Origin: Elusimicrobiota bacterium
Lineage (GTDB): Bacteria; Elusimicrobiota; Elusimicrobia; UBA1565
Assembly: GCA_016212885.1 (NCBI GenBank)
Contig: JACRDO010000132.1
Location: 28,779-92,778, forward strand
Direction of reading: 5' to 3'
DNA: 64,000 nucleotides
Shown here: in pieces, positions 17,196-56,949 of the stretch
How positions within the stretch are numbered: the first letter of the stretch is position 1
How the letters are laid out: every line of letters starts with the position of its first letter
Notes under the pieces: generated by a model
Databases searched by the model: none
Seen by the model: the letters and a program-made list of their open reading frames with translations, nothing else
Told to the model about the DNA's origin: nothing
Program-made: the position numbers and the translations under genes

Positions 17196-18773
17196 ATGTT
17201 CGCAAGGTTTATTCCATTGGCGCTTCTGGCTCTGGCGCTGCGGGCCTCGCCCGCGTGGGCCCAGGCGATCGGAGGCCAGCCCGGCGAGATATTCTCCTTC
17301 GGGGCCGGGGCCCGGGCGCTCGCCATGGGCTCGGCCTACACGGCCGTGGTCAACGACGTATCTTCGGTCTACTACAACCCCGCCGGGCTCGGGCTTCTGC
17401 CGGCGCGGGAGATCTCCCTCATGCGGGCGTTCCTCTACGGGGATGCGACCTACGACTACATCGCCTACGCGCAAAACAACCGCAAGAACGCCGGCGGCTG
17501 GGGCGCCGAGTTCATCCAGTTCAAGGTCGGCGGGGCGAGCGGGCGCGACCAGGACAACAACGAGACCGGGCAGTTCGGCTACTCTGAAAGAGCCTTCGGC
17601 CTCGCGGCAGCCTGGCGCGGGCTCCTGCACCCGCGGCTCTCCCTCGGCGCCAAGGTGAAGATGATGCAGCGCGGCTTCAGCGGCGCCGGCAACGCCGCCT
17701 CCGACAGGCTCTTTGGCATCGACTTCGGCGCGCAGATGGGGCCGTGGGTCGGCGAGCGCCTCATGCTCGGACTCATAGTGCAGAATGTGATGGGCTTCAA
17801 GCAGGGCGACACGGAGGATTCCCTCAAGCTGCTGCTGCGCCTCGGCGCGGCCTACAAGGTCATCGGGCCGCTCTCCGTCGCGGCCGATGTCTCCAACAAC
17901 AGGGAGTTCCGCGTGGGGACGGAGTACTCCATCGGGTTCCTGGCTCTCCGGGTCGGCCTCGCCCAGCAGGGCATGACCTTCGGCGGAGGGCTGCTCTTCA
18001 AGAACCGTTATTCCGTGGACCTGGCGATGCTCAACCATCCGACCCTCGGCATGTCGCAGAGGATCTCGCTCGGCTACCGGTTCGCCGGCGCCGCGGGCGC
18101 GGGCGAGAAGTCGAAGAAGATGCGGTTCTACGCCGAGGAGTTCCTCGCCAACGCCCAGGCCGAGCTGAAGAAGAGGAACTACCTCAAAGCCCTCAACGAC
18201 TTCTCCGCCGGCCTCGGCATCGACCCCAAGCGCGGGGCCGAGTGGCGCTCGAAGACCGACCGCCTGCGCCGGCTCCTCAAGCGGATGGGCCTCGAGGCCC
18301 ATCCGGAGGACAGCGCCACGCTCGCAGAGGACTCGCAGCCCGCCGTCGTAGCTTTCGCGGCCATAGAATCCTACATGGGCCGGGAGGAGGAGCGGGCGAT
18401 GACTCTGGCCCACGCGGCGGTCGGCCTGGATACCGCCAAGGGCGCCTTCGGACGGCTGCTCGACTCGCTGGCAGCGCTGACGGGACATGCGATCCAGCGC
18501 GACCAGCTCCTGCCGCCGCTGCGGCTGGCGGAGTTCAAGATGAAGCGGGCCATGGACGCCATCTATGCCCGCAGGTTCGAGGCGGCCGTGACCCTGCTTC
18601 GCGAAGCCCTCTGGCTCGACCCCGGCAACGTCATGGCCTGGACCCGGCTCGGCTCGGCCTTCTTCGCCTCCGGGGACCGCCCGAAGGCCGCGGAGGCGTA
18701 CCGAGAGGCGCTCCGGCTCAACCCGGCCGATGAGAAGCTGAGGCAGTTCGTCAGGTCCCAGGGGTTGGAGTAA
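17196..18773 (+). CDS. Outer-membrane beta-barrel protein, PorV/PorQ (FadL)-like, with C-terminal TPR-like domain
   Basis: Signal peptide MFARFIPLALLALALRASPAWAQ. The N-terminal motif GARALAMGSAYTAVVNDVSSVYYNPAGLG is typical of FadL/PorV/PorQ-type barrels. An amphipathic strand pattern runs to about residue 300 (..QRISLGYRF). A ~220-aa helical TPR-like tail follows (AWTRLGSAFFASGDRPKAAEAYREALRLNPAD). Confidence 0.55.
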   Translation: MFARFIPLALLALALRASPAWAQAIGGQPGEIFSFGAGARALAMGSAYTAVVNDVSSVYYNPAGLGLLPAREISLMRAFLYGDATYDYIAYAQNNRKNAGGWGAEFIQFKVGGASGRDQDNNETGQFGYSERAFGLAAAWRGLLHPRLSLGAKVKMMQRGFSGAGNAASDRLFGIDFGAQMGPWVGERLMLGLIVQNVMGFKQGDTEDSLKLLLRLGAAYKVIGPLSVAADVSNNREFRVGTEYSIGFLALRVGLAQQGMTFGGGLLFKNRYSVDLAMLNHPTLGMSQRISLGYRFAGAAGAGEKSKKMRFYAEEFLANAQAELKKRNYLKALNDFSAGLGIDPKRGAEWRSKTDRLRRLLKRMGLEAHPEDSATLAEDSQPAVVAFAAIESYMGREEERAMTLAHAAVGLDTAKGAFGRLLDSLAALTGHAIQRDQLLPPLRLAEFKMKRAMDAIYARRFEAAVTLLREALWLDPGNVMAWTRLGSAFFASGDRPKAAEAYREALRLNPADEKLRQFVRSQGLE

Positions 18774-18823: not shown

Positions 18824-21331
18824 ATGGACGCTGTCATCATCGTCCTGATCCCGGTGCTGTTCCTGACGCTGGCGGCCAGCATGCTGGTCGTCAGCCAGGT
18901 TTCCGGCTTCTTCCAGTCCAACAAGTACTCCCGCAAGCGCCAGCAGGACCGCATGGAGATCCAGCGGTTCATGGCCCAACTGGCCGGCGCGCAGAGCCAG
19001 GTCTTTGCGCGCAGCAAGGAGCTCGAGCGGCTCTCGGCGAACCTGCAGCTCAGCAACCAGGAGCTGGCCCGGCTCAACAGCATGAAGACGAAGTTCCTGT
19101 CGATGGTTGTCCACGATATGAGGACCCCGCTTGCCTCCATCAAGGGGTTCGGCGAAATGCTCAGCCGCCAGACGCTCCCGGCGCAGCAGACGAAGTATGT
19201 GAACTATATCGTCAGCGGCACGGACCAGATCAACCAGCTGATGGCCGACCTCACGGACCTCGCGGTCATCGAAGCAGGCAAGCTCAAAATGGAAAAGCAG
19301 CCATTCGCCTTGTCCGACATGGTCAATGACCTCGTGCCCGGGATTGGCCTGCAGGCGCAGAAGAAGGGCGTGATTTTCACGGCGCCGGAGCCGCCGCGGG
19401 GGATCACCGTAATCGGGGACAGCTTCCGTCTGCGCCAAGCGCTCCAGAACTTCCTCACCAACGCGGTCAAATTCACCCCCGCGGGGGGAAAAGTCGAGCT
19501 GAGGGTCAGCGTGGGCCCGCGGGGCGCGCTGTTCCAGGTCAAGGACACGGGCCCGGGCATCCACGCCTCCGAGCGCAAGCGCATCTTCGAGAAGTTTTAC
19601 CAGTCGCAGTTCGGGGACCCGAAGGCGCGCCAGAAGGGCTGGGGGCTCGGCCTCTCGATCGCGCAGGAGATCATCCGCTCGCACCAGGGGGAGATGGGGG
19701 TGGATTCCGCCGGGCTCGGCAAGGGCGCCACCTTCTGGTACCGCATCCCGCTCAAGCCCTCCAGGATGGCGGCCTACGCGCTCGCAAAGACCGCGGCGGC
19801 CGTCCTCCTGCTGGCCCTGCTCCTGCCGGGGGCCCGGGCCCAGCAGACGCTCCCGATCGAGGAGAAGGCGAAGTTCGAGAAATCCCTCGAGGACCGCGCC
19901 AACACGATCCTGCTCCACATCCTGGGGCCCAACCGCGGGCGTGTCGTAGTCGACGCCACGCTCGACTTCACCCGCATCGAGAAGTTCGACGTCAAGAGCG
20001 GAGCCGTATCGCCTGACCGGGAGACCCTCTACCTCTGGGAGAAGGTGGGAGCCCAATCGGGCGGCCAGGACCTGCTCCCGGGCATCCCGCCCCAGGAGCA
20101 GCTGCCGAACGCGAACCTGGCGCGCTCCTACGAGCGGCAAAACTCCTTCCCGACGGCCTTTATCAAGAGACTCAAGGTGACGGTTATCTTGGACGGCGCT
20201 GTCGGCGCCGACCAACGCAAGATCATCACGGATGCCCTGACGGAGGCTCTCGACCTCAAGAAAGATCGGGGAGTGGATGCAAACGGCTTCACGCTCAAAG
20301 ACGAAATGCTGATCGTTCCCGCCACCTTCGCCCCCGCATGGAAGACGGTCTGGTACACCCCGGAATCCGCAAGCCTCCTCTTCAAATACGCGCTCATCAG
20401 CCTGATGACGCTGATCACCCTCATCGTCGTCGCGGCCTGCTTCCTGAAGCTCGCGGAGGCGATGGACTCGATGGCGCAGGCGCAGGCCCATCAGCTCCAG
20501 ATGGACTTCGGCCAGCAGGGCGCCGACCTCGCCGGGAAGGAAGAGGAGGAGAAGAAGAAGAAGGAGGAGGAGGCCAAAGCCGAGAGCGCGGAGGCCGCCT
20601 CCACCAAGATCGTCTTCAACGTCAAGGTGGAGCAGATCGAGACGCTCATCGAGATGGTGCGCAGCCAGGACGCGGAGAACATCTCCCTCATCGCCGCGCA
20701 CCTCCCGCCCGACGTCAAGAAGGCGTTCCTGGCCAAGCTCCCGCCGAGCGTCTACAGCGAGGTGATCTTCTATCTCGGCCGCGTGCGCTTCATCGACCAG
20801 GAGGTTGTCTCCACCGTCAAGGACGAGCTGGAGCGGCGCCTGGAGAGCGCGGTCGGCGGCCGGTCGAACCTCCTCGGCATGATCGAGGCCTCGGACCTCA
20901 AGTCCAAGCGCGAGCTCCTCAAGCTGCTCGAGGAGCGCGACCCCGACCTTGCGCGGCAGCTGCGCGAGCAAATCCTGCTCTTCGAGGACCTCTCGGACCT
21001 CGAGGAGAAGGACTGGTCCTTGGTCTTCTCGGTCGTCACGCTCGAGGAATGGGCCTTCGCGCTCTACGATGCCCCGGAGGATCTGGTCGAGGCGCTCAAG
21101 AGCCAGATGCTTCCGAAGACCTGGGCCATCCTGTCCCAGATGATGCAGGTGGGCCGTCCCTCGGAAAGGGCCATCGAGGAGGCGCACGAGCGCATCGTCA
21201 ACTCGGTCTGGAAGCTGGTTCAGGACGGCCGCATCACCAACCCCATCACCCGCCGCATCGAGCGCATGGCCGCCCGGCCGAAGGAAGAGGGCCCTCCCCC
21301 CTTGGTCGAGGGCGCCGCGGAGCTGGGCTAG
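18824..21331 (+). CDS. Fusion protein: membrane-anchored histidine kinase + FliF RBM3-like periplasmic ring domain + FliG (middle and C-terminal)-like domain
   Basis: The frame is open from TTG 18812 / ATG 18824 to TAG 21329-21331 with no internal stop. N-terminal TM helix (AVIIVLIPVLFLTLAASMLVV), coiled coil, H-box FLSMVVHDMRTPLASI, N-box NAVKFT, G1 DTGPGI, G2 GWGLGLSIA. From M at 19766 there is a TM or signal-like helix. Next comes LEDRANTILLHILGPNRGRVVVDATLDF...IKRLKVTVILDG...TM, colinear with FliF RBM3, beta-collar and TM2. After a Glu/Lys-rich linker, a region aligns end to end with FliG_M and FliG_C (ISLIAAHLPPDVKKAFLAKLPPSVYSEVI...; LLKLLEERDPDLARQLREQILLFEDL...WAFALYDAPEDLVEALKSQM). 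Confidence 0.8.
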   Translation: MDAVIIVLIPVLFLTLAASMLVVSQVSGFFQSNKYSRKRQQDRMEIQRFMAQLAGAQSQVFARSKELERLSANLQLSNQELARLNSMKTKFLSMVVHDMRTPLASIKGFGEMLSRQTLPAQQTKYVNYIVSGTDQINQLMADLTDLAVIEAGKLKMEKQPFALSDMVNDLVPGIGLQAQKKGVIFTAPEPPRGITVIGDSFRLRQALQNFLTNAVKFTPAGGKVELRVSVGPRGALFQVKDTGPGIHASERKRIFEKFYQSQFGDPKARQKGWGLGLSIAQEIIRSHQGEMGVDSAGLGKGATFWYRIPLKPSRMAAYALAKTAAAVLLLALLLPGARAQQTLPIEEKAKFEKSLEDRANTILLHILGPNRGRVVVDATLDFTRIEKFDVKSGAVSPDRETLYLWEKVGAQSGGQDLLPGIPPQEQLPNANLARSYERQNSFPTAFIKRLKVTVILDGAVGADQRKIITDALTEALDLKKDRGVDANGFTLKDEMLIVPATFAPAWKTVWYTPESASLLFKYALISLMTLITLIVVAACFLKLAEAMDSMAQAQAHQLQMDFGQQGADLAGKEEEEKKKKEEEAKAESAEAASTKIVFNVKVEQIETLIEMVRSQDAENISLIAAHLPPDVKKAFLAKLPPSVYSEVIFYLGRVRFIDQEVVSTVKDELERRLESAVGGRSNLLGMIEASDLKSKRELLKLLEERDPDLARQLREQILLFEDLSDLEEKDWSLVFSVVTLEEWAFALYDAPEDLVEALKSQMLPKTWAILSQMMQVGRPSERAIEEAHERIVNSVWKLVQDGRITNPITRRIERMAARPKEEGPPPLVEGAAELG

Positions 21332-21334
21332 GCT

Positions 21335-22459
21335 ATGGCGGAGAAAGTCGACTTCCTTCTCGCCTCCCTGCGCGGCCAGCCACCGCCCGAGGCCCCGCCG
21401 TCCGTCGAGGCCCAGGCGGCTGCGGCCGCCTCGGAAGAGCAGCTCGCCCCTCTGCGCTCGAAGGTCGAGGAGCTCGAGCGCAAGCTCGCCGAGCTCTCGG
21501 CGCCGCCCGCCCCGCCGGAAGGCGCGGAGGCTCCGGCGGAGCCGCCCAAGCCGCCGACCGAACTGATGATGTTCCTGCACACGCGCATGGAGCTTCTCGA
21601 GCGCCGCCTGGAGCTCGCCCAGCAGGAGGCCCTGCGGGCCAACCTGGTCCTCCGCGAGCGCGAGGAAGCGCAGAAGAAGGCCCAGGGCGAGGTCGAGGAG
21701 CTCTTCCGCTCGATCCGCGAGCAGGAGCGCTCGGCCCGCTTCGACCGGAGGCTGCGCGAGCAGTACTCCGCGACCCACTCCCGCGTGGAGGAGCTGGAGG
21801 CCCGGCTGGCCATGGCCCAGCTGCGCATGGTCCCCGCCGACGAGGTTCTCCGGTCTATCGAGAGGGAGGAGGGCTTGGGCGAGCTCCGTTCCCGGCTGAA
21901 GGAGCAGCTTTCAAGGATGTCCGGGGGGGAGCCGTCCGTCGGCGCCCCGGCGCCGGCCCCGCCCCCAGCGCCTCCGGCAGGGGCCCCGGACCGGCCCGAG
22001 GGACCCGCACGGCCCGCGCAGGACGCCCCGTTCAACTATAGCGAGCTTCCGCCCCTTTCCATCGTGACGGCCAAGATCGCCGATCTTGAGCTTCGGCTCG
22101 CGGAGGCCGAGAAAGCCCGCGAGAAGGAGCGCCAAAGCCGCCTCCTCTGGGAGAACAACGTCCTTCAGGCGCTCCGGCAGTCCTCCGGCCGCTGGCAGAA
22201 AGCCGGCGGAGCCGGGCTTCTGGTGGAGGCGACTTTGGAGAGTATGGTAGAGTTGCTCAAGAAGAGGGACCTCCTCGCCGGGGAGACGGCTCAGATCCTG
22301 GACAGGCTCCGGTCCGAGCCGCCGGGCTCGGGGGAGGAGCCCCTCCTGCGGGCGCGGCTCGCGGAGCTGCGCAAGAGCATCGAAGAGCTCCAGGGCGAGC
22401 TCGACAAGAAGATGGCGATCGTCAACGCCTGGACCGAGCGGAATAAAGGCAAGGATTAA
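21335..22459 (+). CDS. Coiled-coil / proline-rich protein of unknown function
   Basis: ATG lies 3 nt after the preceding stop. Heptad-rich Glu/Arg/Leu segments (VEELERKLAEL, RMELLERRLELAQQEALRANL, IADLELRLAEAEKAREKERQ) are separated by Pro/Ala linkers. No recognisable family. Confidence 0.6.
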   Translation: MAEKVDFLLASLRGQPPPEAPPSVEAQAAAAASEEQLAPLRSKVEELERKLAELSAPPAPPEGAEAPAEPPKPPTELMMFLHTRMELLERRLELAQQEALRANLVLREREEAQKKAQGEVEELFRSIREQERSARFDRRLREQYSATHSRVEELEARLAMAQLRMVPADEVLRSIEREEGLGELRSRLKEQLSRMSGGEPSVGAPAPAPPPAPPAGAPDRPEGPARPAQDAPFNYSELPPLSIVTAKIADLELRLAEAEKAREKERQSRLLWENNVLQALRQSSGRWQKAGGAGLLVEATLESMVELLKKRDLLAGETAQILDRLRSEPPGSGEEPLLRARLAELRKSIEELQGELDKKMAIVNAWTERNKGKD

Positions 22460-23197
22460 ATGGACATTACGACACTCTCCGGCATCGTCGGCGTCTTAGC
22501 CATGGTGCTCATCGGGGGCTTCACCGGCGAGCTCTCCGCGGTCTTCCTGAACGCGCACGGCATCGTGATCGTCTTCGGCGGGACCGCCGTCGCCATGCTC
22601 ATCAATACGCCGCTGCGCTATGTTCGGGAGACGCTCCTGGCGTTGGCGGAGCTCTTTCGGGGAGACCGCTTCAGCGACCCGGGCGAGCTGATCCCGGTGC
22701 TGGTGCGCCTTTCCGAGCAGGTCCAGGCGCACGGACTCGGGGCCCTGCGGGGCATCGACGAAAGGGCCGCGGGCGGCTTCCTCGGCCAGGCCGCCACCAC
22801 TGCGATGGAGTACAACAACCCCGACTTCGTCCGGCGCGTGCTGGAGACCGAGGTCAACAACAGGGTGGACCGGGCCAACGAGGTCATCAACGTGGTCCGC
22901 ACCATGGGCGTTGTCGCACCGATGTTCGGCCTGCTCGGCACCCTCATCGGCATCGTGCGGGTCATGGCCGTGCTCACCGACCCGGTGAAGGTCGCCCCGG
23001 CCATGGCTGTCGCCATCACCACGGCCTTCTACGGCATCGCCTTGGCCAACCTGGTGGCGGTCCCCATGGCCGGCAAGATGCGCTTCAGGCTGTGGGAGGA
23101 GATCAAGGTCCGGGCGATGGTCATTGAGGGCGTCATCGGCATGATGCAGGGCACGGTCCCCCTGGTGCTCGAGCGCCGCCTGCAGGCTTTCAAATAG
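22460..23197 (+). CDS. motA: MotA/PomA-family stator channel protein (4 TM)
   Basis: 245 aa. It has TM1-TM2, a ~100-aa cytoplasmic loop, then TM3-TM4 with MGVVAPMFGLLGTLIGIV and APAMAVAITTAFYGIALANLVAVPMAGKM, the MotA-type signature. The start abuts the previous stop (0-nt gap). Confidence 0.85.
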   Translation: MDITTLSGIVGVLAMVLIGGFTGELSAVFLNAHGIVIVFGGTAVAMLINTPLRYVRETLLALAELFRGDRFSDPGELIPVLVRLSEQVQAHGLGALRGIDERAAGGFLGQAATTAMEYNNPDFVRRVLETEVNNRVDRANEVINVVRTMGVVAPMFGLLGTLIGIVRVMAVLTDPVKVAPAMAVAITTAFYGIALANLVAVPMAGKMRFRLWEEIKVRAMVIEGVIGMMQGTVPLVLERRLQAFK

Positions 23198-23200
23198 ATC

Positions 23201-23881
23201 ATGGCCGTCTACCGCTTCAGGAAGGAGGAGCTCGAGGGACATCTCAACAGGAACGCCCTCTGGGCGATCGTCTACGGGGACATGATGAGCTACCTCATGA
23301 TCCTCTTCCTCCTCCTGCTCTCCACCGCGCTCATGAAGAACGTCAAGAAGGAGGATAGGCCGGAGGTCGAGAAGTCCCTCATGGAGATCCAGGTGGTCTT
23401 CGGCGGCAAGGTGGACAAGGCGTACGAGGAGAAGAGGTCGCGCGACGAGAAATTCTTCAAGATCTCCGAGGCGCTGAAGGGGATGCAGAGCGCCAACGTC
23501 AGCGTCATCGCCACCGAGAAGCTCGTCCGCGTGCAGCTCGGGGAGGGCGTTCTCTTCGACTCCGGCAGCGCGGAGCTCAAGGAGAGCGCCGCGCCGCTGC
23601 TGGAGCCTATCGCCAAGCAGATGCTCGTCCCCGACAACCAGATCCGCGTCGAAGGCCACACCGACACCGTCCCTATCCGAAAAGGCAAGTACAAGTCCAA
23701 CTGGGAGCTCTCCATGGCCCGCGCCTATTCGGTCGTCCGGACGCTCGAGGGGATGGGCGTCAAGCCGGAGCGGCTCTCCGGCATCGGCTACGGCGAGTAC
23801 CGCCCGGTCGCCGCCAACGACACCCCTGAGAACAAGGCCAAGAATCGCCGCATCGAGATCAACCTGCTGCGGTCGGAATAG
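23201..23881 (+). CDS. motB: MotB-family stator protein with OmpA-like peptidoglycan-binding domain
   Basis: The N-terminal TM carries the conserved Asp (WAIVYGDMMSYLMILFLLL). The C-terminal OmpA-like domain reads VLFDSGSAELK...IRVEGHTDTVP...SNWELSMARAYSVVRTL...GYGEYRPVA.N.T.....NRRIEI. Confidence 0.85.
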   Translation: MAVYRFRKEELEGHLNRNALWAIVYGDMMSYLMILFLLLLSTALMKNVKKEDRPEVEKSLMEIQVVFGGKVDKAYEEKRSRDEKFFKISEALKGMQSANVSVIATEKLVRVQLGEGVLFDSGSAELKESAAPLLEPIAKQMLVPDNQIRVEGHTDTVPIRKGKYKSNWELSMARAYSVVRTLEGMGVKPERLSGIGYGEYRPVAANDTPENKAKNRRIEINLLRSE

Positions 23882-23897
23882 TATAATCTGCCGGCCC

Positions 23898-24593
23898 GTG
23901 CGCGCGCTCATCCTAACGGCGGATAACGCCTTTGCCCTCAGGCTGACGGGCCTGCTGAGAGGCCTGGGCTTGTCTGTCGATGTCCTCCACAGCCTCTCCT
24001 CGGCCGCGGCCAGGACCCGCTGCGAGCTGGCGGTGGTGGATTGGGACGCGGTCCGCTCCGGGCCGGCCCAGGCCCTCCCGCGCCTGCGCGGCTTGGCGTG
24101 GAGGGTGGTCCTCCTGGCAGGGGCCGATGTCGTCTATGGGCCGCAGATGGCCGAAGCGCTCGCCTGGGGGGTCTGCGACGTCGTCTTGAAGACCCTCAAG
24201 GATCCGGCCCTGGCGGGCCGGATCGCGGCTCAGCTTAAGTCCCGGCGCTACTCGGCGATCGAGCCGCGAGGCTGCGGATTGCGGCTGGACAAGGCGGCCC
24301 GGCGGGTGTGGGCGCGCCGCGGACGCGGCTGGAAGGAGATCCCCGCCCTGCCGCCCAAGGAATTCGATCTCCTGTGCGCCTTCTTGGAGCACCCGGGGGC
24401 GGCGCTCCGGCGCGCGGCCCTCCTGGAGCGCTTCTGGCCCGGGAGATCCGGCGACGTCAACCCGGAGACCGTGGACCGGCACGTCCAGCGGCTCAGGCGC
24501 CGGCTCGGGGCCGTCGGGTGGCTGATCGTTTCGGTGCGCGGCGTCGGCTACCGCTTCAGTTTAGGAGAGAGTCCCCATGACAAACGCGGATGA
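23898..24593 (+). CDS. OmpR/PhoB-type response regulator (receiver with partly degenerate active site + winged-helix DNA-binding domain)
   Basis: GTG start. The receiver has the phospho-acceptor context LAVVDWD and the Lys (DVVLKT). However, the acidic pair reads AD-N and the conserved Thr/Ser position reads A (VVLLAG). The C-terminal trans_reg_C-like region reads KEFDLLCAFLEHPG...R..L......G......ETVDRHVQRLRRRL......I.SVRGVGYRF. Confidence 0.7.
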   Translation: MRALILTADNAFALRLTGLLRGLGLSVDVLHSLSSAAARTRCELAVVDWDAVRSGPAQALPRLRGLAWRVVLLAGADVVYGPQMAEALAWGVCDVVLKTLKDPALAGRIAAQLKSRRYSAIEPRGCGLRLDKAARRVWARRGRGWKEIPALPPKEFDLLCAFLEHPGAALRRAALLERFWPGRSGDVNPETVDRHVQRLRRRLGAVGWLIVSVRGVGYRFSLGESPHDKRG

Positions 24594-25938
24594 GACGAAG
24601 AAGGAGCTGGGCCTCAAGGAGTCGATCAAGATCCTTTTCCAGGCCTCCAAGGGCTTCTGGCTCGTGAACATGGTCAATTTCGGCGACGGCATCGCCTATT
24701 TCGGGATTCTGACCCTGCTCACGCTCTTTCTGGGCAAGGAGCGGCTCGGCATGAGCGATCATGCCGCCGGCCTGTCGGTCTCCGCGTTCACGGGCTTGGT
24801 CACCCTGTTCATGTTCGGCGGCGGGTTCATCTCGGACAAGCTCGGCGTGCGGCGGGCGCTCACCCTCTGCCTGATCCTCTGCTTGGGGGGCCGCGTGCTC
24901 CTCTCGGGCTCGCCGTCTTTCGGCGGCGGCGCGCACTTCGCGGCCTGGCTGGGCCTCCTCGTCCTCTCCTTCGGCGAGGGCGTCATCCAGCCGGCCCTCT
25001 ACGCGGGGGTCAAGGAATACACGGACTCCAGGACCGCGACCATGGGCTACGGCATACTCTATGCCATCATGAACCTCGGCATCGTAGCCGAGAACTTCAT
25101 CTCCCCTTTCGTGCGCACGGACAAGGAATTCATTCTCGGGGTCAAAGGCCTGGGCCTGGGCTTCGACGGGGTCTTCTGGATGTGCACCGGCATCACGCTG
25201 ATCATGCTCGCGGTGCACCTGGGCCTCTTCACCAAGAAGGTCGAGGAGACCGACCGGGTGGCCGTGGACGCGCCCAAGACCGAGGAGCCCCAGAAATCCC
25301 TCCTGGAGAAGATCCGGGAGCTCCCCTTCCTGGACCCGCGGTTCATGTTCTTCATCTTCATCCTCCTGCCGGTGCGCACCCTTTTCGCGCACCAGTTCCT
25401 GACCATGCCGGACTACGTGTTCCGGGCCTACGCGCCGGAGGTGAGCGCCAAGTTCGAGTGGATCGCCGGCTTGAATCCCTTCATCATCGTGATCTTCGTG
25501 CCGGCCATCGCGGCCATGACGCGCAAGGTCAACATCATCACCATGATGATCATCGGGACCAGCATCTCGGCCCTCACCACCTTCATCCTCGTGCCGGGGC
25601 CGGACCTGACGCGGCTGATCCTCTACACGCTCCTGTTCTCCCTGGGAGAGGCGGTCTGGTCCTCGCGCTTCCTGGAGTACGTGGCGGACCTGGCGCCGCA
25701 AGGCAAGGTGGGCGCCTACATGGGCCTGGCCGGCATCCCCTGGTTCCTGGCCAAGTTCACGACCGGCCTCTATTCCGGCCGGATGCTCGAGATCTTCGTC
25801 CCCAAGGGCGGGGCCCTGAACACGAGCACGCTTTGGCTGATCTACGCCCTCATCGCCTGCATCAGCCCGCTGGGCCTGCTGCTCGCCAGGAGCTGGCTCC
25901 TAGGCCACAAGAAAGCGATGTCTGGAGGCGCGTCATGA
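24577..25938 (+). CDS. MFS-type transporter (12-14 TM; POT-like N-terminus)
   Basis: AGGAGAG Shine-Dalgarno at 24563-24569 and ATG at 24577, overlapping the regulator gene by 17 nt. It is hydrophobic throughout with a central loop. Substrate unknown. Confidence 0.6.
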
Positions 25939-26132
25939 CGGACTGCCCGAAGAAAGACGAGAACCTCAAGGACTGCAACTGCACCTATTCCTGCTCCAAG
26001 AAGGGGCGGTGCTGCGAATGCGTGGCCTACCACCGGAGCCAAGGCGAGTTCCCGGCCTGCTTCTTCACGGCCCAGGGCGAGCGGACCTACGACCGCTCCT
26101 TCGCCGCGCTGCAGAAGTACCATAGGAGCTAG
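25935..26132 (+). CDS. Small Cys-rich protein (65 aa), translationally coupled to the transporter
   Basis: ATGA start/stop overlap with the MFS gene. The sequence [44 protein letters not shown] carries 9 Cys in 43 residues. Confidence 0.55.
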
Positions 26133-26138
26133 CCGAAG

Positions 26139-26612
26139 ATGAAGGGATTCTCCCTCCTCTGCGCGATCCTCTTGGCCGCGTCGGCTGGGGCGGGCGGATG
26201 GAAGGCCCGCCGGTTCGAGAGGACCTATGAGAATGGCCGGCTGAGGATCGAGGTCAAAGTCCCCGGGGACTGGAAGCTTAAGGAGAACCCATCCTCCCTC
26301 ATCTGGACAATGCCGGAGCGGGAGGGGGAGGCTTTCGCGATCCATTGGCTGAACCCGGACCGCATCTACGACGTCGAATCCATCTGCCGCTCCGGGATGT
26401 GCGTCGACGAGGCGGCCTTGAAGGACGCTTCGGGCTCCAGGATCCGGATCGCCAGGCCCACGCCGGAACGCCAAAGCGCCATGGGCCTCTCCAAGGATTT
26501 CCTTTTCGCGGAGCCAATCAATTCGAAGGACCGGATCACCCTCTGGTTCACCACGGACCATCTGCCCAGCGCGATGTTCAGGAAAGTCCTTTCCACGCTG
26601 AAACATCGCTGA
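26139..26612 (+). CDS. Secreted hypothetical protein
   Basis: Signal peptide MKGFSLLCAILLAASAGAGG. Amino-acid composition is normal for a real protein. No family recognised. Confidence 0.5.
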   Translation: MKGFSLLCAILLAASAGAGGWKARRFERTYENGRLRIEVKVPGDWKLKENPSSLIWTMPEREGEAFAIHWLNPDRIYDVESICRSGMCVDEAALKDASGSRIRIARPTPERQSAMGLSKDFLFAEPINSKDRITLWFTTDHLPSAMFRKVLSTLKHR

Positions 26613-26648
26613 AACAGCGGCGGGCCATACCCTCGGATAGGCCGTCGG

Positions 26649-28004
26649 TCAGCCGAGCATCTCCACGAGGCGCCCGCTGAGGTAATGCGGCAGCGTCACC
26701 AGGGGAACCTTGCGCGGCGTCCCGGCGTTGGCGATTCTCGCCTCATGAGCGGCGTCGCGTCGCGGCGGCTCCTTGCTCATTTTGACGAGGCACCCCACTT
26801 CTCTCTCGAAGACGGCGCAGCTGTCGAGGGAGCGCGCGTCCCCCCGCGTGGATTTCACGTCGATCGCCGCGAACAGGGGCGACCTGAGGATGAATTCGAC
26901 CTGCGCCCCGCGGCTGGATTTCCAGTAAAAGAGATCGTCGCGCGTCGGCAGGGTCGCGATGATCTCGTTTCCGACCGCGGTCTCGTACTGGACGGCCAGA
27001 TGCGCGTCGGTGATCCTGCCGCGGAGGATGTCGGAGCCGTTGAGGAGATAGTTCAAGACGCCGGCGTCGAAGATGATGTATTTCGAGAGGTCGATTCCGG
27101 ACTCGTAGAGCCGGATCTTGTGCGCGACGCGCGCGCCGACCGTCTTGTTGACCAGCCGCTTCGCCTCTCCCCGGCTCGCGTGCCGCACCTGGAGCCGTGA
27201 GAACTTGAGGGTATCCATGGAGAGAAGCGCGAGCCTCCTGAGCACGTCCTCGTATTCGTAGAGCGCCGTCTTCTCGCCTAGGACGGACTTGACGTTCTCC
27301 TCGATCGAGCCGGCGAGGTCCGCAACGAGCTGCGGCAGGGTCTCTTTCCCGGGCGCGTCAATGAAGGCGTCGAGTATGCGCGGCATTCCGCCCAGCCTGA
27401 GGTAGAGGCCGAAGAGATCGTTTAGTTCCTGGTGGCGCATCTGCGAGCAGGTCCTATCCTCCAGCGAAATCCCATCGAGATAGGCCAGTTCCGGCTGCTT
27501 GCCGTAGGCGCGGAGGAACTCCCGGAAGGTGACTGGGTAGAGGTCGAGGTGCCGCTTTCGGCCTGTGGCGGCGTTCTTGACCGCGATGTTCTCCAGGTTC
27601 GAGCCGGTGTAGACGGCTTTGAGCCTGTCGGAGAGCCCCGCCATGGTCTGGATCGTCTCAAGCGAGACCGGATGCCTGTCCGCTTCGTCAATGAAGATGA
27701 TCGCGGGCGCGCTCAACCGCTCGATGGGGCCGAGGGTGAGGGAGATGTTGCGCAGGAGTTGAGAGGCATCCTCCGCGGCGCCGAAGAAATCGCGGCCGAA
27801 GTAGTCGACACCATCGATAATGCCGCGACGCTGCAAGGACAGGTTGATCCTGATCTGCGGGTGGCTTGCGAGGTCCTTGAGCGCATTGAGGACAAAAGAC
27901 GTCTTGCCGACCTGCCTTGCCCCCCTGACCACGAGGACCTGCGATTTCAGGCGCTTGACTGATTGAAGGAAGTCCTTCTTTTTGTTCGCTCGCTCGATCC
28001 ACAT
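26649..28004 (-). CDS. AAA+ ATPase (AAA_14 / DUF4143-type)
   Basis: Walker A VVRGARQVGKTSF and Walker B IIFIDEADR. Length (~450 aa) and C-terminal layout are typical of stand-alone DUF4143 ATPases. GC content is visibly lower at the gene's 5' end and in the flanking region. Confidence 0.7.
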   Translation of the reverse strand: MWIERANKKKDFLQSVKRLKSQVLVVRGARQVGKTSFVLNALKDLASHPQIRINLSLQRRGIIDGVDYFGRDFFGAAEDASQLLRNISLTLGPIERLSAPAIIFIDEADRHPVSLETIQTMAGLSDRLKAVYTGSNLENIAVKNAATGRKRHLDLYPVTFREFLRAYGKQPELAYLDGISLEDRTCSQMRHQELNDLFGLYLRLGGMPRILDAFIDAPGKETLPQLVADLAGSIEENVKSVLGEKTALYEYEDVLRRLALLSMDTLKFSRLQVRHASRGEAKRLVNKTVGARVAHKIRLYESGIDLSKYIIFDAGVLNYLLNGSDILRGRITDAHLAVQYETAVGNEIIATLPTRDDLFYWKSSRGAQVEFILRSPLFAAIDVKSTRGDARSLDSCAVFEREVGCLVKMSKEPPRRDAAHEARIANAGTPRKVPLVTLPHYLSGRLVEMLG

Positions 28005-28179
28005 GCCGCAATTATACCATTATATGCGTCAGTTTGGGGGCATTATCGTCAAAAGTGACGTAACTATTGACATCATTGACTCGGGCCTGAATTCCCAATT
28101 CCGCGTAGGCCCAGAGGCCGAGCGCCGAAGGCCGAGCGGCCCCTGCCCGGCCCTGAAACTGCCGCCATAATATCAGGCG

Positions 28180-30467: not shown

Positions 30468-30526
30468 GGCGATATGATGGAAAATACTCTCGGCAGGGGC
30501 AAGCTGCGGCGGAGGTCCGGAAGCGT

Positions 30527-33160: not shown

Positions 33161-33347
33161 CTGCGATGATAGGATAGCGCGGGCGGGGTTCGGGCGCCTG
33201 GGCCGTTCATCCGAATATCGGGGTTCTATTGGGCTAGATTCCGGTAGGACCAAAGACTTCGGCGTTTTGCCGTTTAGACCCAAGGTGTTTTCGCCCGCCG
33301 CGTGTACAATGGATTCTTGAAGGGGCCGACACCCGGAGGTGCGGGCA

Positions 33348-34222: not shown

Positions 34223-34864
34223 CTACCGCTCCAAGAAGCCCGGCACCTCCCGGATGTCGTCTAGGACCGGGACACCGCTCCTCACCAGCCGGTGCTTGGC
34301 CTGATAGCCGCGCGCGATGAGCGCGCAGCCCACTCCCATGGCCCGCGCGGTCTCCAAGTCATGCACGGTATCGCCGATCAGGATGATCTTCTCCGGCTCT
34401 ATGCCGCAGGAGCGGATCCAGCTCGCGCCCAGCTCCACCTTGCTGCCGGCGTGGTAGTCCCCCAAGCCGAGGACCGGGTCGAAATAGTCCCGGATATTGA
34501 AATGGACCAGCGCTTTTTCGAGCATCTCGTGCTTGTAAGCCGATAGGATGCCCTGCTGAATTCCCTTGCCGCGGAGCGTCTCCAGAACGTCCGCGGCGCC
34601 CTCGTGGAGGCGGCCTTCGGCCCAGATGCGCTCATGGTAGAGCCCCGCCCATTCGTTCGCGGGGACGTCGAAAGGCTCCACGCTGAAGTCGAAGCCGATC
34701 TTCCGGTAGAACTCGATGACGGGGAAGTCGAAGTTCTCGAGGTAGTACTCCAGGGGGACCTCGGGCATGGAGCGGCGCCGGCGCATCGCGTTGAGGCACT
34801 CGAGGCAGAGCCGGGCGTCGTCGAGGAGCGTGCCGTTGAAGTCCCAGATGACGCGCCGGATCAC
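34223..34864 (-). CDS. HAD-superfamily phosphatase (phosphoglycolate phosphatase-like)
   Basis: GTG start in a GTGA overlap with the upstream gene's stop. Motif I reads VIWDFNGTLLDD (second Asp replaced by Asn), motif II GILSA, motif IV LIGDTVHDLETA. The remaining upstream part of ORF 34223..35611 is Arg/Pro-rich artefact. Confidence 0.7.
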   Translation of the reverse strand: MIRRVIWDFNGTLLDDARLCLECLNAMRRRRSMPEVPLEYYLENFDFPVIEFYRKIGFDFSVEPFDVPANEWAGLYHERIWAEGRLHEGAADVLETLRGKGIQQGILSAYKHEMLEKALVHFNIRDYFDPVLGLGDYHAGSKVELGASWIRSCGIEPEKIILIGDTVHDLETARAMGVGCALIARGYQAKHRLVRSGVPVLDDIREVPGFLER

Positions 34865-35826
34865 TTGTCGCCGCGGCGGTCGATGACGAAGCGGGAGCCC
34901 GGCCCGTCCTGCTGCTTGGCGAACTCCTTGAGCTCGGCGCAGATCTGGCTGACCTGACCGTAGGAGACCAGGCGCCTCTGGCGGTTGTGGCAGACGCCGA
35001 TCGCGATGGAGAGCAGGGGATGCTCGATGAGCCGGCCTTGGCGGTCGTTGGCCAGGATACCCCCGCGGGCGCGGTCTTCCTCCGGGTAGAAGGAAGGGGA
35101 GAGCCGGTCGAAGCCCTCGACCACGCGGCGGCAGAGGGCCTCCATGCTGTCCGGGTGGGTCACGATGATGAAGTCGTCGCCGCCGATGTGGCCGAGGAAG
35201 TCCGTCCCCGTCCCCGCTTCCCGGACCACCTCCACCAGCAGCTTGGCGGTCGCCCGAATGACGCGGTCCCCGGCGTCGTAGCCGTAGTGGTCGTTGTACG
35301 CCTTGAAGTCGTTGAGGTCGAGATAGAGCACGGCGAAGGGCCGAGCGGAGGCGACCGCTTCGGCGATGCGGTTTTCGATCATCACGTTGCCCGGCAGGCG
35401 GGTCAGGGGGTTCGCGTCGAGCCCCTGGCGCGTGCGGCGCAGGATCATGCGGATGCGGGCCAGCAGCTCGCCCAGGTTGAAGGGCTTGGTGAGGAAGTCG
35501 TCTGCGCCGCTTTCGAGGCCCTCGATGCGGTTCTCGACTTCCCGGCCAGCTGCCGAAAGGATGATGATGGGCAGGTGCTGGAACCCGGGGTCCGCCTTCA
35601 GCTCCCGGCACACGCTGAAGCCGTCCTTGAGCGGCATCCAGAGGTCCACGACGGCGATGTCGGGCACCTCGGCCCGGATGGCCGCCAAGGCCTGCTCGCC
35701 GTCCATGGCAATGCGCACCTCATAGCCTTCCTGCTCCAAGGCGCCTTTCATCAGCGCCAGCAGGTCCGGCTCATCATCGGCGACCAAGAGCCGCGCTTTC
35801 TTGACAGGAGAAGATTCGGGGCCCAC
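34861..35826 (-). CDS. Response regulator receiver + GGDEF domain protein (putative diguanylate cyclase; signature reads GGDDF)
   Basis: Canonical REC (RLLVADDEPD...IAVVDLWMP...IIILSA...DDFLTKPF), then LTRLPGN...AVLYLDLNDFKAYND.YGYDAGD....FLGHIGGDDFIIV. The GTG start at 35826 is tentative, with no ATG and no clear SD. The upstream part of ORF 34861..36216 overlaps the atp promoter and is rejected. Confidence 0.7.
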   Translation of the reverse strand: MGPESSPVKKARLLVADDEPDLLALMKGALEQEGYEVRIAMDGEQALAAIRAEVPDIAVVDLWMPLKDGFSVCRELKADPGFQHLPIIILSAAGREVENRIEGLESGADDFLTKPFNLGELLARIRMILRRTRQGLDANPLTRLPGNVMIENRIAEAVASARPFAVLYLDLNDFKAYNDHYGYDAGDRVIRATAKLLVEVVREAGTGTDFLGHIGGDDFIIVTHPDSMEALCRRVVEGFDRLSPSFYPEEDRARGGILANDRQGRLIEHPLLSIAIGVCHNRQRRLVSYGQVSQICAELKEFAKQQDGPGSRFVIDRRGDK

Positions 35827-35853
35827 GCGGGAAGGGTAGCATATTTGCTTAAA

Positions 35854-35883
35854 TTGACAGGCTTTTTCGGTTATTTGTAGAAT
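35854..35883 (+). promoter_or_regulatory. Sigma70-like promoter for the atp operon: TTGACA-N18-TAGAAT
   Basis: TTGACA at 35854-35859 and TAGAAT at 35878-35883, in the AT-rich divergent gap between the GGDEF gene and the first atp gene (ATG 35905). Confidence 0.5.
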
Positions 35884-35904
35884 TGTTTCGCTTTGTTTTT
35901 TGCC

Positions 35905-36129
35905 ATGAACGATGCCCGACAGCCGCCCCGCCGCAGCGCATGGACCGCTTTTGGGGCCGGAACCGAACTGGTCGTTTTCGCCCTGGCGGGTTTTTTCGCG
36001 GGCCGCTGGGCGGACAGCCGGTTCGGAACGCAGCCCTGGCTGCTTTTGGCGGGCACGCTTCTGGGCATCTGCCTTGGACTCTATCAGTTCATCCGAGAGA
36101 CGGTTATCGCTAAGGACCGCGCTCCGTAG
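35905..36129 (+). CDS. AtpZ-like small membrane protein (ATPase_gene1 family)
   Basis: Two TM helices with AWTAFGAGTELVVFALAGFFAGRWADSRFGTQPWLLLAGTLLGICLGLY, matching the AtpZ pattern. It is the first gene of the atp operon. Confidence 0.6.
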   Translation: MNDARQPPRRSAWTAFGAGTELVVFALAGFFAGRWADSRFGTQPWLLLAGTLLGICLGLYQFIRETVIAKDRAP

Positions 36130-36154
36130 CGCGGGCGAAGCGACAGCGGCGTCT

Positions 36155-36460
36155 TTGGCGGTAGCGGCCGCGCTGTGGGCCGCGCTGCCCCGCGGGGCCG
36201 CCGGCCAGGCGCTCATGGGACTGGGCGCGGCATGGGCCGTCTCGGCGGCCTGCGTGGCCGCGCTATTGGCCGCGCAGGGCCGTTCGATGAAGACGTTCCT
36301 GTGGGTCTACGGCGGGGGATTGGCCGCGCGCGCCTTTGTCCTCGCCGGACTGATGGCCGCGGTGTGGGGCCTGCCCAGCGGCGCCCAGGCCGCGCGGCTT
36401 CTGGCGTATGTCTTTGGCGTGCTGTTCCTGTTGCTGCTCGAGATCAGGCATCTGAGATGA
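36155..36460 (+). CDS. AtpI-like hydrophobic protein (start uncertain)
   Basis: Hydrophobic helices (AAWAVSAACVAALLAA, GGGLAARAFVLAGLMAAVWGL, LLAYVFGVLFLLLLEI) end in an ATGA overlap with atpB. Possible starts are TTG 36155 or ATG 36215. Confidence 0.4.
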   Translation: MAVAAALWAALPRGAAGQALMGLGAAWAVSAACVAALLAAQGRSMKTFLWVYGGGLAARAFVLAGLMAAVWGLPSGAQAARLLAYVFGVLFLLLLEIRHLR

Positions 36461-40156: not shown

Positions 40157-40593
40157 AGACAGCGTTGTTGGCGGCGTCGTTGGCGGTTTCGCTTGCCTTG
40201 CCCGCGGCCGCGCAGGAAGCCGTTCCGATGGGGCAGGTCATCAATCTGAGCCTCGTGGAGGCCCTCGTCGCCGTCGAGCATGCGGACCTGTCCGGCATCT
40301 TCGGCTTCGTGCCGGAGGAGGCGGCCGGCTTCGCGCTGGCCGACTTCCTGATGCGCGACCACAAATCCCTCAAGCGCTTCATCCAGAAGTGCGAGAAGGA
40401 CTACAAGCAGGCTCATGGCACCAGCCTTTGGGACAAGCAGGTCCTGCTCCACCTCGTCACCATCAACGCGTCCGGAGCGGCGCCGATGGGCGTGAAGCGG
40501 ATCCCGGCGAAGCTGATGGACAGGGTCAATACGCTGAGCCTGGTGGATGGACTGCCCCTGGAGGTCGTGGTGCAGCGTCGCGGAGGGAAGTAG
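40153..40593 (+). CDS. Small secreted hypothetical protein inserted between atpA and atpG
   Basis: ATGA overlap with the atpA stop. Signal peptide [21 protein letters not shown]. No family recognised. Confidence 0.5.
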
Positions 40594-42509: not shown

Positions 42510-44720
<2,211 letters not shown>

Positions 44721-56935: not shown

Positions 56936-56949
56936 GGAGCTTGTCTATT

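Follow-up and report, generated by a model that had tools for sequence, protein, structure and literature searches.

In a 64,000-nucleotide stretch of an Elusimicrobiota genome (assembly GCA_016212885.1, contig JACRDO010000132.1, positions 28,779 to 92,778; here called the window), a single gene encodes a histidine kinase joined in frame to a reduced flagellar rotor protein, which consists of a FliF ring domain followed by the middle and C-terminal domains of FliG. We refer to this second part as the mini-rotor. The fusion is genuine and has been maintained during evolution in one clade of Elusimicrobiota. It belongs to a conserved gene cluster that also includes a MotA/MotB stator, a PorV-like outer-membrane barrel with a tetratricopeptide repeat (TPR) domain and a giant surface protein. 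The cluster probably encodes a non-flagellar motor assembled from flagellar parts and linked to the PorV-like/TPR protein and the giant adhesin, with the kinase as an accessory signalling arm. A preliminary description of the window, made from its sequence alone, had recognized the fusion and its domains, which are borne out here, while it missed the PorV-like/TPR barrel, the giant adhesin and the MotAB context. Coordinates of the features discussed are collected in Table 1.

Table 1. Features of the window; positions are counted from its first nucleotide. Residue numbers within the fused protein are those of the 839-residue version counted from TTG 18812; TM, transmembrane segment.
Feature	Position	Strand	Evidence or remarks
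Giant surface protein, at least 5686 amino acids	17..17077	+	Pfam: Kelch, fn3, 13 FG-GAP_3, Laminin_G_3
PorV/PorQ-like 14-strand outer-membrane barrel (residues ~30-296) with periplasmic TPR domain (~307-521)	17196..18773	+	
Fused kinase and mini-rotor gene	18824..21331	+	835 amino acids from ATG 18824 (839 from the alternative TTG 18812)
Kinase TM1 (residues 8-26)	18833..18889	+	Hydropathy, charge counts; N-terminus outside, positive charges then on the cytoplasmic side
Kinase core: HisKA 91-156 (H-box FLSMVVHDMRTPL) and HATPase_c 202-315	19082..19756	+	Pfam, NCBIfam
Signal-peptide-like segment ('TM2') MAAYALAKTAAAVLLLALLLPGARA, followed by QQ	19766..19840	+	Aligns with N-terminal signal peptides of unfused orthologs
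FliF RBM3, periplasmic, with shortened collar-like insertion of ~65 amino acids	19853..20335	+	Family profile, AlphaFold2 model, Foldseek
TM3 (residues ~521-545) running into the conserved cytoplasmic helix FLKLAxAM	20372..20446	+	Hydropathy, invariant alignment columns, long helix in the model
Glu/Lys-rich low-complexity linker (residues 576-597), in place of FliG_N	20537..20602	+	Sequence; pLDDT <50
FliG_M (residues 611-681) and FliG_C (706-809)	20642..21238	+	Pfam, phmmer, Foldseek, motif alignments
Coiled-coil, Pro-rich cytoplasmic protein, 374 amino acids	21335..22459	+	Starts 3 nt after the rotor gene
MotA/PomA-type stator A subunit	22460..23197	+	Pfam, NCBIfam
MotB-type stator B subunit: plug, TM with Asp27 (YGDMMS), OmpA-like peptidoglycan-binding domain	23201..23881	+	
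OmpR-family winged-helix regulator with degenerate (pseudo-)receiver	23898..24593	+	Trans_reg_C E 2.5e-18, no Response_reg match
Response regulator with GGDEF-like domain	34861..36216	-	Intact receiver, motif GGDDF; Pfam

A continuous reading frame shared by orthologs

The open reading frame (ORF), on the + strand, is uninterrupted between its start at TTG 18812 or ATG 18824 and the stop codon at 21331, and the N-termini of orthologs (ME..VIALIP...) point to ATG 18824 as the start. Between the end of the kinase (...GATFWYRIPLKPSR) and ATG 19766 there are zero stop codons. The frame read through 19700-19850 is ...GATFWYRIPLKPSRMAAYALAKTAAAVLLLALLLPGARAQQT..., again stop-free, and the remaining two frames look non-coding. 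GC content at third codon positions is 0.91 along the entire ORF and matches that of the adjacent genes. An identical protein of 835 amino acids is deposited at NCBI as HY922_12930 from an Elusimicrobia metagenome-assembled genome (MAG), and database labels for the fused protein read 'hypothetical', 'ATP-binding protein' or 'histidine kinase/FliG'.

The domains follow each other in the order TM1, HisKA/HATPase_c kinase, hydrophobic segment, FliF RBM3/collar, TM helix, FliG_M and FliG_C. Pfam matches to HisKA (E 1.3e-16), HATPase_c (E 2.6e-25), FliG_M (34.6 bits against a cutoff of 25) and FliG_C (60.5 bits against 23.3) were obtained from the single sequence, which also matched YscJ_FliF_C at residues 369-487 with 19.2 bits, under the cutoff of 23.8. 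Hydropathy identifies three hydrophobic segments (residues 8-26, 320-338 and 527-545), and positive residues follow TM1 and precede the second segment. The membrane topology proposed earlier, with kinase and FliG domains in the cytoplasm and the ring domain in the periplasm, is self-consistent by hydropathy and charge distribution.

An error of assembly, sequencing or gene calling could have joined two ordinary neighbouring genes. Related genomes (L002, L003, L014 and L063) have split genes with a 4-bp overlap, in which the kinase stop overlaps the rotor start as ATGA, and a one-base error at such an overlap could in principle imitate a fusion. The ortholog comparison leads us to reject this explanation as highly improbable. 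Kinase and rotor are fused in frame and stop-free at 17 loci including the window, the 16 others being species-level MAGs from different projects, samples and assemblers with 40-74% identity, and the fused sequences group as a coherent clade. Fusion is also found in about 40 protein clusters, and the third-position GC of the complete ORF likewise speaks against a composite of two genes. The preliminary claim of one ORF joining kinase and rotor therefore stands, and its suggestion to compare orthologs separates fused lineages from one nested subclade that is split. A neighbour-joining tree places clade I (fused, with this split subclade) apart from clade II (unfused throughout).

Internal initiation at ATG 19766 was considered as well and rejected. 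The AGGA reported immediately upstream is present, but it touches the ATG with zero spacer, and the Met is not kept among fused orthologs, which carry V, F, A, L or Q at this position. Judged from these sequences, what remains of an ancestral start codon is the better interpretation of the Met at 19766.

FliF and FliG domains of the mini-rotor

Since the single-sequence Pfam match to FliF fell under the cutoff, the FliF assignment rests on a family profile and a structure model. The profile, built from an alignment of 29 members (alignment A1), matched solved FliF chains with E-values of 1.6e-7 (9yh6), 3.9e-6 (Vibrio, 8z5s) and 4.6e-4 (Salmonella, 6scn, residues 382-440). The AlphaFold2 model of residues 319-839 has a mean predicted local distance difference test score (pLDDT) of 73 and shows an RBM-type alpha-beta-[insertion]-beta-alpha-beta domain, a long TM helix and two confident helical FliG domains. 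Foldseek searches of the PDB with this model recovered the RBM3/collar rings 6sd1, 8zdt and 7cg7 at E ~1e-4, with template modelling scores (TM-scores) of 0.53-0.55 over ~180 columns. The periplasmic region of ~185 amino acids is wholly accounted for by RBM3/collar.

Evidence for the FliG domains is stronger at the level of the single sequence. In phmmer, the C-terminal 200 residues matched Thermotoga maritima FliG_MC (1lkv) at E 2.7e-16, and the family profile improved this to 1e-31. FliG_MC structures rank first in the Foldseek search (E 5e-10); FliG_C superimposes on 1qc7 with TM-scores of 0.83-0.93 and a root-mean-square deviation (rmsd) of 1.1-1.2, and FliG_M on 4qrm/3soh with a TM-score of ~0.8 and rmsd of 1.4-2.0. 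Alignment A1 has an invariant VGG (Gly-Gly) hinge joining FliG_M to FliG_C. Profile hidden Markov models thus recover both families: FliG_M and FliG_C exceed the Pfam cutoffs, and FliF is significant with the family profile. The preliminary description had aligned the middle and C-terminal domains of FliG without gaps; the domains are confirmed, and the alignment contains two small gaps.

Several parts of the flagellar proteins that the same description reported as missing are indeed missing. PF01514 (YscJ_FliF, covering RBM1/RBM2) has zero matches among family members, leaving a FliF truncated to RBM3/collar. PF14842 (FliG_N) has zero matches in the family, while the canonical FliGs in the same search all have FliG_N; the gap of ~65 amino acids between TM3 and FliG_M is filled by a helix and the Glu/Lys linker. 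Motifs were compared in an alignment of 65 family members with ten canonical FliGs, together with alignment to T. maritima FliG. At the position of EHPQ(T) the window protein has QDAEN and the family (E/Q)(D/E)(P/A)xN, and the Arg of the canonical EHPQT...R is Y in the window protein and variable across the family, confirming the loss of EHPQR. The torque helix of the window protein reads PKTWAILSQMM. Relative to Escherichia coli, K264 is replaced by Y and R281 by K, so that the basic residue is kept within a family-conserved KTW, D288 is replaced by Q, near-invariant in the close family, D289 by M, and R297 lacks conservation. The torque helix has thus lost its acidic pair, as had been proposed, and has Q-M instead. 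These changes are replacements conserved across the family rather than random decay. Taken together with the parallel change in MotA described below, their conservation makes the interface look remodelled, not decayed.

An internal signal peptide and possible cleavage

The second hydrophobic segment had been interpreted as an outward membrane helix, TM2. The hydrophobic segment is real, but by alignment it equals the Sec signal peptide of the family. Unfused rotor proteins open with Sec signal peptides of 16-25 amino acids, for example MRLAGLFFAFALPAAA/QTIPLE and MKIIALFFALAASASA/QQTIPLD (the slash marking the cleavage site), whose alignment with the hydrophobic segment inside the fused proteins is exact. 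In the window protein, a signal peptidase I site is predicted after residue 343 in LLLPGARA/QQ, with a Pro-Gly breaker at -5/-4. Residue -1 is A, S or G in all 63 sequences, fused and unfused (55, 4 and 4, respectively), residue -3 in nearly all of them is one of A, L, V, S, G, I and C, and residue +1 is Q in 57. The -3/-1 rule and the signal-peptidase pattern A-x-A/Q are kept in 63 of 63 sequences, alike in fused and unfused members. The N-terminal anchor of the mini-rotor has cleavable-type features throughout, and its C-terminal TM segment is clear.

The covalent link between kinase and rotor may not survive in the mature proteins. Signal peptidase I could cut after ...PGARA/QQ once the internal signal peptide has been inserted, which would leave a kinase with two TM segments and a mature mini-rotor with one, the latter the same as in the split-gene relatives. 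The fusion would then exist at the level of translation only and secure 1:1 synthesis and co-localization instead of a covalent mechanical link. We consider this quite plausible while leaning slightly against it. The textbook signal peptides of the unfused orthologs, the residues around the site and the Pro-Gly helix breaker all favour cleavage. So does the subclade nested among fused lineages which reverted to two genes with the rest of the cluster unchanged, making fusion and split look functionally interchangeable. On the other hand, the conserved A/Q could instead serve ring structure, the hydrophobic stretch in several fused orthologs is long enough for a stable TM helix, and maintenance of the fusion across the divergence of these orthologs (40-74%) suggests that linkage itself has value. 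Possible cleavage weakens the idea of a covalent mechanical link, but not that of one-to-one co-assembly.

The kinase

The N-terminal part is a class I histidine kinase with a single TM anchor and without a sensor domain. Its HATPase_c domain carries the N, G1, F and G2 boxes. Across 60 loci the catalytic boxes are all at least 95% conserved, and the juxtamembrane motif VVSQVSGF of TM1 is conserved as well. Pfam and NCBIfam scans found no PAS, GAF, HAMP or periplasmic sensor domain, in agreement with the earlier reading, and just the TM helix and a coiled-coil linker stand ahead of the DHp domain. Clade II proteins have 52-59% identity to the window protein in the kinase versus 32-42% in the rotor.

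The rotor had been put forward as the only plausible input of the kinase. That exclusivity does not follow, as the kinase is kept as a neighbour even with motA in between, at 40 loci. The stator, the TPR/PorV protein and the coiled-coil protein are equally possible sources of the input. In distant paralogous clusters the rotor gene has no adjoining kinase gene.

The stator and the rotor-stator interface

Best PDB relatives of the MotA protein are flagellar MotA/PomA (E 2e-32), and its length of 245 amino acids is that of the short flagellar type. MotB matches the Pfam families MotB_plug and OmpA. Both subunits score below NCBIfam equivalog cutoffs. Residues of the ion path are conserved: the equivalents of MotA Pro173 and Pro222 in 100% of loci, and the MotB channel Asp in 53 of 53.

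In canonical flagellar motors, MotA R90 pairs with FliG D288-D289 and E98 with R281 (PMC12505986). The charged cytoplasmic loop of the window MotA reads VQAHGLGALRG. The R90 equivalent is Q in the clade of the window and R in clade II, and nearly every family member has R/K at the E98 equivalent. In clade II, a FliG torque helix of the form (E/D)K(T)W..EQ accompanies a MotA loop R..K(D/E), and in clade I, which includes the window, PKTW..(S/E)Q accompanies Q/H..R(G/N/A). This pattern suggests an interface in which the FliG torque helix and the MotA loop evolve together.

MotAB-type motors also occur in Zorya anti-phage defence systems, and MotB does match the PADLOC models of ZorB (E 6.7e-25), as expected for any MotB homolog. 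A Zorya-like system is nevertheless an extremely improbable identity for this cluster. MotA gave no ZorA match and, at 245 amino acids, is without the long ZorA tail; ZorC/D-like proteins and nuclease or helicase effectors were not found. The kinase-rotor and coiled-coil proteins gave weak unrelated PADLOC matches (PDC-M43B at 19.7 bits and LmuB at 28.5 bits), and the PorV-TPR protein and the regulator gave none.

Distribution and gene order

Searches with the rotor part returned about 66 close relatives, about 40 of which have 808-835 amino acids and include the kinase. The close relatives with a named source are all from Elusimicrobia(ota), except for a partial sequence assigned to an NC10 bin. 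Scanning GTDB with a single genome for each species gave 67 loci, all in Elusimicrobiota MAGs or unnamed 'bacterium' MAGs. Besides the fused loci, kinase and rotor genes are adjacent but split at 6 loci, motA lies between them at 40, and at 9 the contig is too short to tell the arrangement. The synteny PorV-TPR, kinase, (MotA), mini-rotor, coiled-coil, MotA/MotB holds at about 60 loci, all Elusimicrobiota. Clade I has the order giant, PorV-like barrel-TPR, kinase-rotor, coiled-coil, MotA, MotB and OmpR-like regulator, and clade II the order barrel-TPR, kinase, MotA, rotor, coiled-coil, one or two unknown genes and MotB. Locus L025 has tandem mini-rotor genes (5852-7342 and 9335-10840) in the order kinase, rotor, MotA, rotor, coiled-coil, MotB.

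These word-indexed searches recovered the close family only (~66), and an exhaustive profile search of 1.84 billion representatives exposed wider paralog families, with 171 clusters at E <= 1e-30. Many of these members have 480-700 amino acids and a single match of 130-215 bits over RBM3, TM helix and FliG_MC; those with a named source are again from Elusimicrobiota. Five of their loci illustrate the gene content:
L072 has a 14,454-aa giant, TPR protein, rotor, an 800-aa protein, FlbD, MotA, OmpA and MotB; L073 a 4,285-aa giant, UPF0164/TPR barrel, rotor, MotA and MotB; L074 a TPR protein, rotor, MotA and MotB; L075 a TPR/OMP protein, rotor, a 1190-aa protein and GGDEF, with FlbD-MotA-MotB on the opposite strand; and L076 a giant of at least 3,521 aa, barrel-TPR and rotor. 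The invariant core is a TPR(-barrel) protein, the mini-rotor and MotAB, with the giant protein frequent, and only the subfamily of the window has a kinase gene immediately upstream of the rotor gene. L073 and the fused locus L008 come from the same MAG, so several such modules can coexist in one genome; in L073 a HAMP/PAS kinase is encoded four genes downstream of the rotor gene. In L072 (1-7823), L075 and L076 the rotor protein has an additional C-terminal TPR region, and in L072 and L075 a small flbD gene adjoins motA.

The outer-membrane barrel, the giant protein and the coiled-coil protein

The barrel-TPR gene lies upstream of the kinase and rotor genes at every locus long enough to show it. 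Its product matches the NCBIfam model PorV_fam at E 1.3e-22 and 80.8 bits, just below the cutoff of 90, and its homologs are named 'PorV/PorQ family protein' by NCBI. The AlphaFold2 model (pLDDT 88.5) has 14 strands and a TPR domain of ~215 residues. Its top fold matches in the PDB are the PorV chains 6h3i_F and 8gl6_F from the translocon of the type IX secretion system (T9SS), at E ~1e-9 and a TM-score of 0.60, ahead of FadL. An FlgD_ig domain is fused onto some barrel homologs (P0170, P0180 and P0192).

The giant ORF has no in-frame stop between the start of the window and its ATG at 17, opens within a Kelch repeat and has no signal peptide; the 5' end of the gene probably lies upstream of the window. 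Its C-terminal beta-sandwich matches FlgD_ig (30.5 bits, cutoff 27). The C-terminus also has PorU/PorZ C-terminus-like matches and a match to the NCBIfam model Por_Secre_tail which, at 16.5 bits, is below the cutoff of 23. Orthologous giants lie upstream in all clade I loci reaching that far. An FlgD_ig-like protein of ~137 amino acids is encoded between the giant and barrel genes in L001 (7983-8396) and also in L007, L009, L013 and L014.

The N-terminal region of the coiled-coil protein is conserved in about 40 loci, and Pfam, NCBIfam and PADLOC gave nothing meaningful that would place it in a known family. Intergenic gaps from 18824 to 24593 are 0-16 nt, and the operon structure is proposed from these gaps only. 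No promoter-like sites were found in 16.9-26.7 kb, and terminator-like sites occurred at the level of shuffled sequence.

A probable non-flagellar motor and its alternatives

The mini-rotor comprises a signal peptide, the FliF RBM3/collar ring domain, one TM helix, FliG_M and FliG_C. In the mechanism we propose, it would form, together with the MotA/MotB stator, the inner-membrane core of a machine driven by proton motive force, descended from the flagellar motor and working without export gate, rod or C-ring. The family-wide loss of EHPQR and FliG_N fits the absence of fliM and fliN nearby. The most likely function is that torque or rotation of the ring would be passed across the periplasm to the TPR/PorV-adhesin complex, and could there move the adhesin, deploy it or put it under tension, as happens in gliding or attachment to surfaces. 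The kinase would be made 1:1 with the rotor subunit as an accessory arm specific to the subfamily, and it probably reports or sets the state of the motor via the response regulator with GGDEF-like domain and the pseudo-receiver OmpR-like regulator.

Some observations weigh against this interpretation. The collar region, an insertion of ~65 residues where FliF has its beta-collar, has low confidence in the model, and most flagellar torque charge pairs (MotA R90/E98, FliG D288/D289) are absent in the window proteins. The co-variation between FliG and MotA represents roughly one evolutionary event between two clades, which is not statistical proof. An outer-membrane translocon for the giant protein is not present in the cluster, and some distant paralog clusters are without giant adhesin or barrel (L074). 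The output of the kinase is hard to assign, given that the receiver of the nearby regulator is degenerate and the GGDEF motif reads GGDDF. What the sequences show is the fusion, the identity of its domains, the gene order, the conserved ion path of the stator and the parallel changes of rotor and stator between clades. The ring, its rotation, its contact with TPR/PorV, the coupling to the adhesin and the input and output of the kinase are inferred, and the non-flagellate status of the host comes from a literature statement at the level of the phylum.

The same genes could encode an energy transducer instead of a continuous rotary motor. MotAB would then spend proton motive force on conformational work, exerted via the FliG-like domain and RBM3 ring much as in ExbBD-TonB, TolQR-TolA or SiiAB, and this work would secrete the giant adhesin at the PorV-like barrel, or anchor or hold it there. 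There is precedent, since MotAB-like units are reported to serve secretion of a giant adhesin in Salmonella SiiAB-SiiE (bioRxiv 10.1101/641415), and 5:2 motors power many outer-membrane processes (PMC12204202). The largely missing classical torque charge pairs and the position of the TPR-barrel gene as the tightest neighbour of the rotor gene fit a transducer too. However, the retained RBM3, the FliG_M-GlyGly-FliG_C arrangement and a plugged, peptidoglycan-binding MotB are exactly what a ring rotor with anchored stators needs, the torque helix is strongly conserved within the family, and a TonB/TolA-like transducer is not present in the cluster. We regard the transducer as rather unlikely.

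Homology to FliF, FliG, MotA and MotB, flbD adjoining motA in distant paralog clusters, and the few Elusimicrobiota with complete flagellar gene sets would all be expected if the protein belonged to a divergent real flagellum or a decaying remnant of one. Yet RBM1/2, which house the export gate, FliG_N and the FliM-binding EHPQR are missing family-wide, and no fliM/N, flhA/B, fliPQR, rod, hook or filament gene was found among the Pfam-scanned ORFs of the window or in those related loci that are annotated. Genomes carry several paralogous clusters, often each beside its own giant protein, and strong purifying selection on stator and kinase residues argues against decay. Membership in a flagellum, intact or decaying, is therefore very unlikely.

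Within the non-flagellar motor that we favour, a more specific arrangement can be envisaged, and we offer it tentatively. MotAB would turn a ring of mini-rotors docked via the TPR domain onto the PorV-like barrel that holds the giant adhesin, forming an envelope-spanning organelle for gliding or tactile sensing, and the co-made kinase would turn motor load or rotation into a transcriptional or cyclic di-GMP (c-di-GMP) signal. This combination is possible, although we would not yet call it probable. If it holds, the FliG-MotA torque interface would for the first time be seen at work outside flagella, with a mechanosensor built in.

Relation to known systems

The cluster shares with the flagellar motors of Salmonella, E. 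coli, T. maritima and Vibrio the RBM3/collar, the FliG_M and FliG_C folds with their Gly-Gly hinge, the plug, channel Asp and peptidoglycan-binding domain of MotB and a MotA of the PomA/MotA type. It differs by the absence of RBM1/RBM2, FliG_N and EHPQR and by the remodelled charge pairs of torque helix and MotA. Presumably there are no genes for a FliM/FliN C-ring, export apparatus, rod, hook or filament here. The mini-rotor is anchored by a cleavable-type signal peptide rather than FliF TM1, a histidine kinase is fused or linked to it, and a TPR/PorV-like outer-membrane protein always adjoins it. Most free-living Elusimicrobiota are without structural genes for a flagellum but do have motAB, flbD and fliG, the role of which has been called unclear, and a few have complete flagellar gene sets (bioRxiv 10.1101/2022.07.08.499144). 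Beyond this passing remark on the phylum, we found no published description of the kinase-rotor fusion or the cluster.

Covalent linkage of FliF and FliG is tolerated in real motors, as engineered Vibrio FliF-FliG fusions are reported to form rings (PMC11481574). The only natural FliF-FliG fusion that we found in the literature is that of Chlamydiaceae (CT719 family), a protein of ~330 amino acids with an RBM2-like domain, no RBM3 and only a FliG_M-like domain, which has been discussed as a partner of the type III injectisome (Bergeron 2016, PMC4768692). Both are natural covalent FliF-FliG proteins of non-flagellated bacteria which have lost FliG_N and part of FliF's periplasmic portion. In contrast to the chlamydial fusion, the Elusimicrobiota protein has RBM3/collar, FliG_M and FliG_C, has no RBM2, and is linked to MotAB, a kinase and a PorV-like barrel.

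The T9SS and gliding machinery of Bacteroidota, which includes the GldLM (PorLM) motor, PorV, SprF and the giant adhesin SprB (PMC8986121), likewise ties a proton-driven inner-membrane motor, both genetically and functionally, to a PorV-family barrel and to an adhesin that is several thousand residues long and ends in a beta-sandwich domain of the sorting type, and the barrel of the window matches the PorV fold best. Here, however, the motor consists of MotAB and a FliF/FliG-derived ring, not GldL/GldM, and the barrel has a periplasmic TPR domain. Homologs of SprA, PorK and PorN were not seen in the cluster, the match to the T9SS C-terminal domain model is sub-threshold, and T9SS core genes (SprA/Sov, PorK/L/M/N) are absent from the window ORFs scanned and from related loci. 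Salmonella SPI-4 also encodes a MotA/MotB-like pair, SiiAB, with an adhesin of >5,000 amino acids, SiiE. SiiAB (bioRxiv 10.1101/641415) differs in serving a type I system of ATP-binding cassette, membrane fusion and outer-membrane proteins and in having no FliG/FliF-like rotor, kinase or PorV-like barrel. The output of a two-component system depends on the mechanical state of a MotAB/FliG motor in Bacillus subtilis DegS-DegU, which responds to a block of flagellar rotation (PMC3963450), and coupling of this kind is what we propose for the window. In the known cases, however, a working flagellum serves as the motor, and the kinase is a separate soluble or membrane protein that neither fusion nor operon ties to the rotor.

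The rotor-stator pair has apparently been rebuilt for another purpose in Elusimicrobiota, with a ring domain, torque domains and stator joined to type-IX-like outer-membrane parts, giant adhesins and a kinase. To our knowledge, the FliG-MotA pair has been described only in flagella. If our interpretation is correct, this would be a genetically hard-wired test case for the conversion of mechanical motor state into a phosphorylation signal. It would also provide a natural minimal rotor for studies of torque without C-ring or export apparatus, explain the 'enigmatic' motAB and fliG genes of non-flagellated Elusimicrobiota, and could represent a new mode of surface motility or adhesion. The finding bears on the evolution of the flagellar motor and on its ancestral or exaptable core.

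Signalling neighbours and the rest of the window

The OmpR-like pseudo-receiver regulator is conserved downstream of motB in clade I loci. Alignment with PhoB shows that its receiver has not conserved the counterparts of K105, T83 and the acidic pair, while that of D53 is mostly kept. In clade II, a PAS kinase and two CheY-like regulators lie upstream at many loci. The response regulator with GGDEF-like domain has orthologs of 46-67% identity in L001, L002, L003, L011, L012, L013, L052, L054 and L063, and at nine or more other clade I loci its gene comes immediately downstream of the cluster, compared with ~10 kb away in the window. On this evidence of sequence and position, the protein is a candidate partner of the kinase. 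Just the first 104 of 161 profile positions of the GGDEF-like domain match, and it may be a degenerate cyclase.

The ~10-kb block at 24577-34217, between the motor cluster and the gene for the response regulator with GGDEF-like domain and an ATP synthase operon, contains an MFS transporter gene with a 17-nt overlap with the regulator gene, an AAA_14/DUF4143 ATPase, an amidohydrolase, a family-less protein of 918 amino acids and others. It looks like an insertion, because in orthologous loci (e.g. L002) the gene for the response regulator follows the cluster almost directly. The F-type ATP synthase operon has unusual contents of its own: a PilZ-domain gene (E 8e-15; 42510-42857, + strand) lies between the genes for gamma (41507-42487) and beta (42854-44275), thus embedding a c-di-GMP receptor gene in the atp operon, and an NAD-dependent epimerase gene (40389-41519, + strand) lies between those for alpha and gamma. 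At 56450-58833 (- strand), a RelA/SpoT-family (p)ppGpp synthetase/hydrolase gene adjoins a small gene with a cyclic-nucleotide-binding domain, an ordinary-looking pair.

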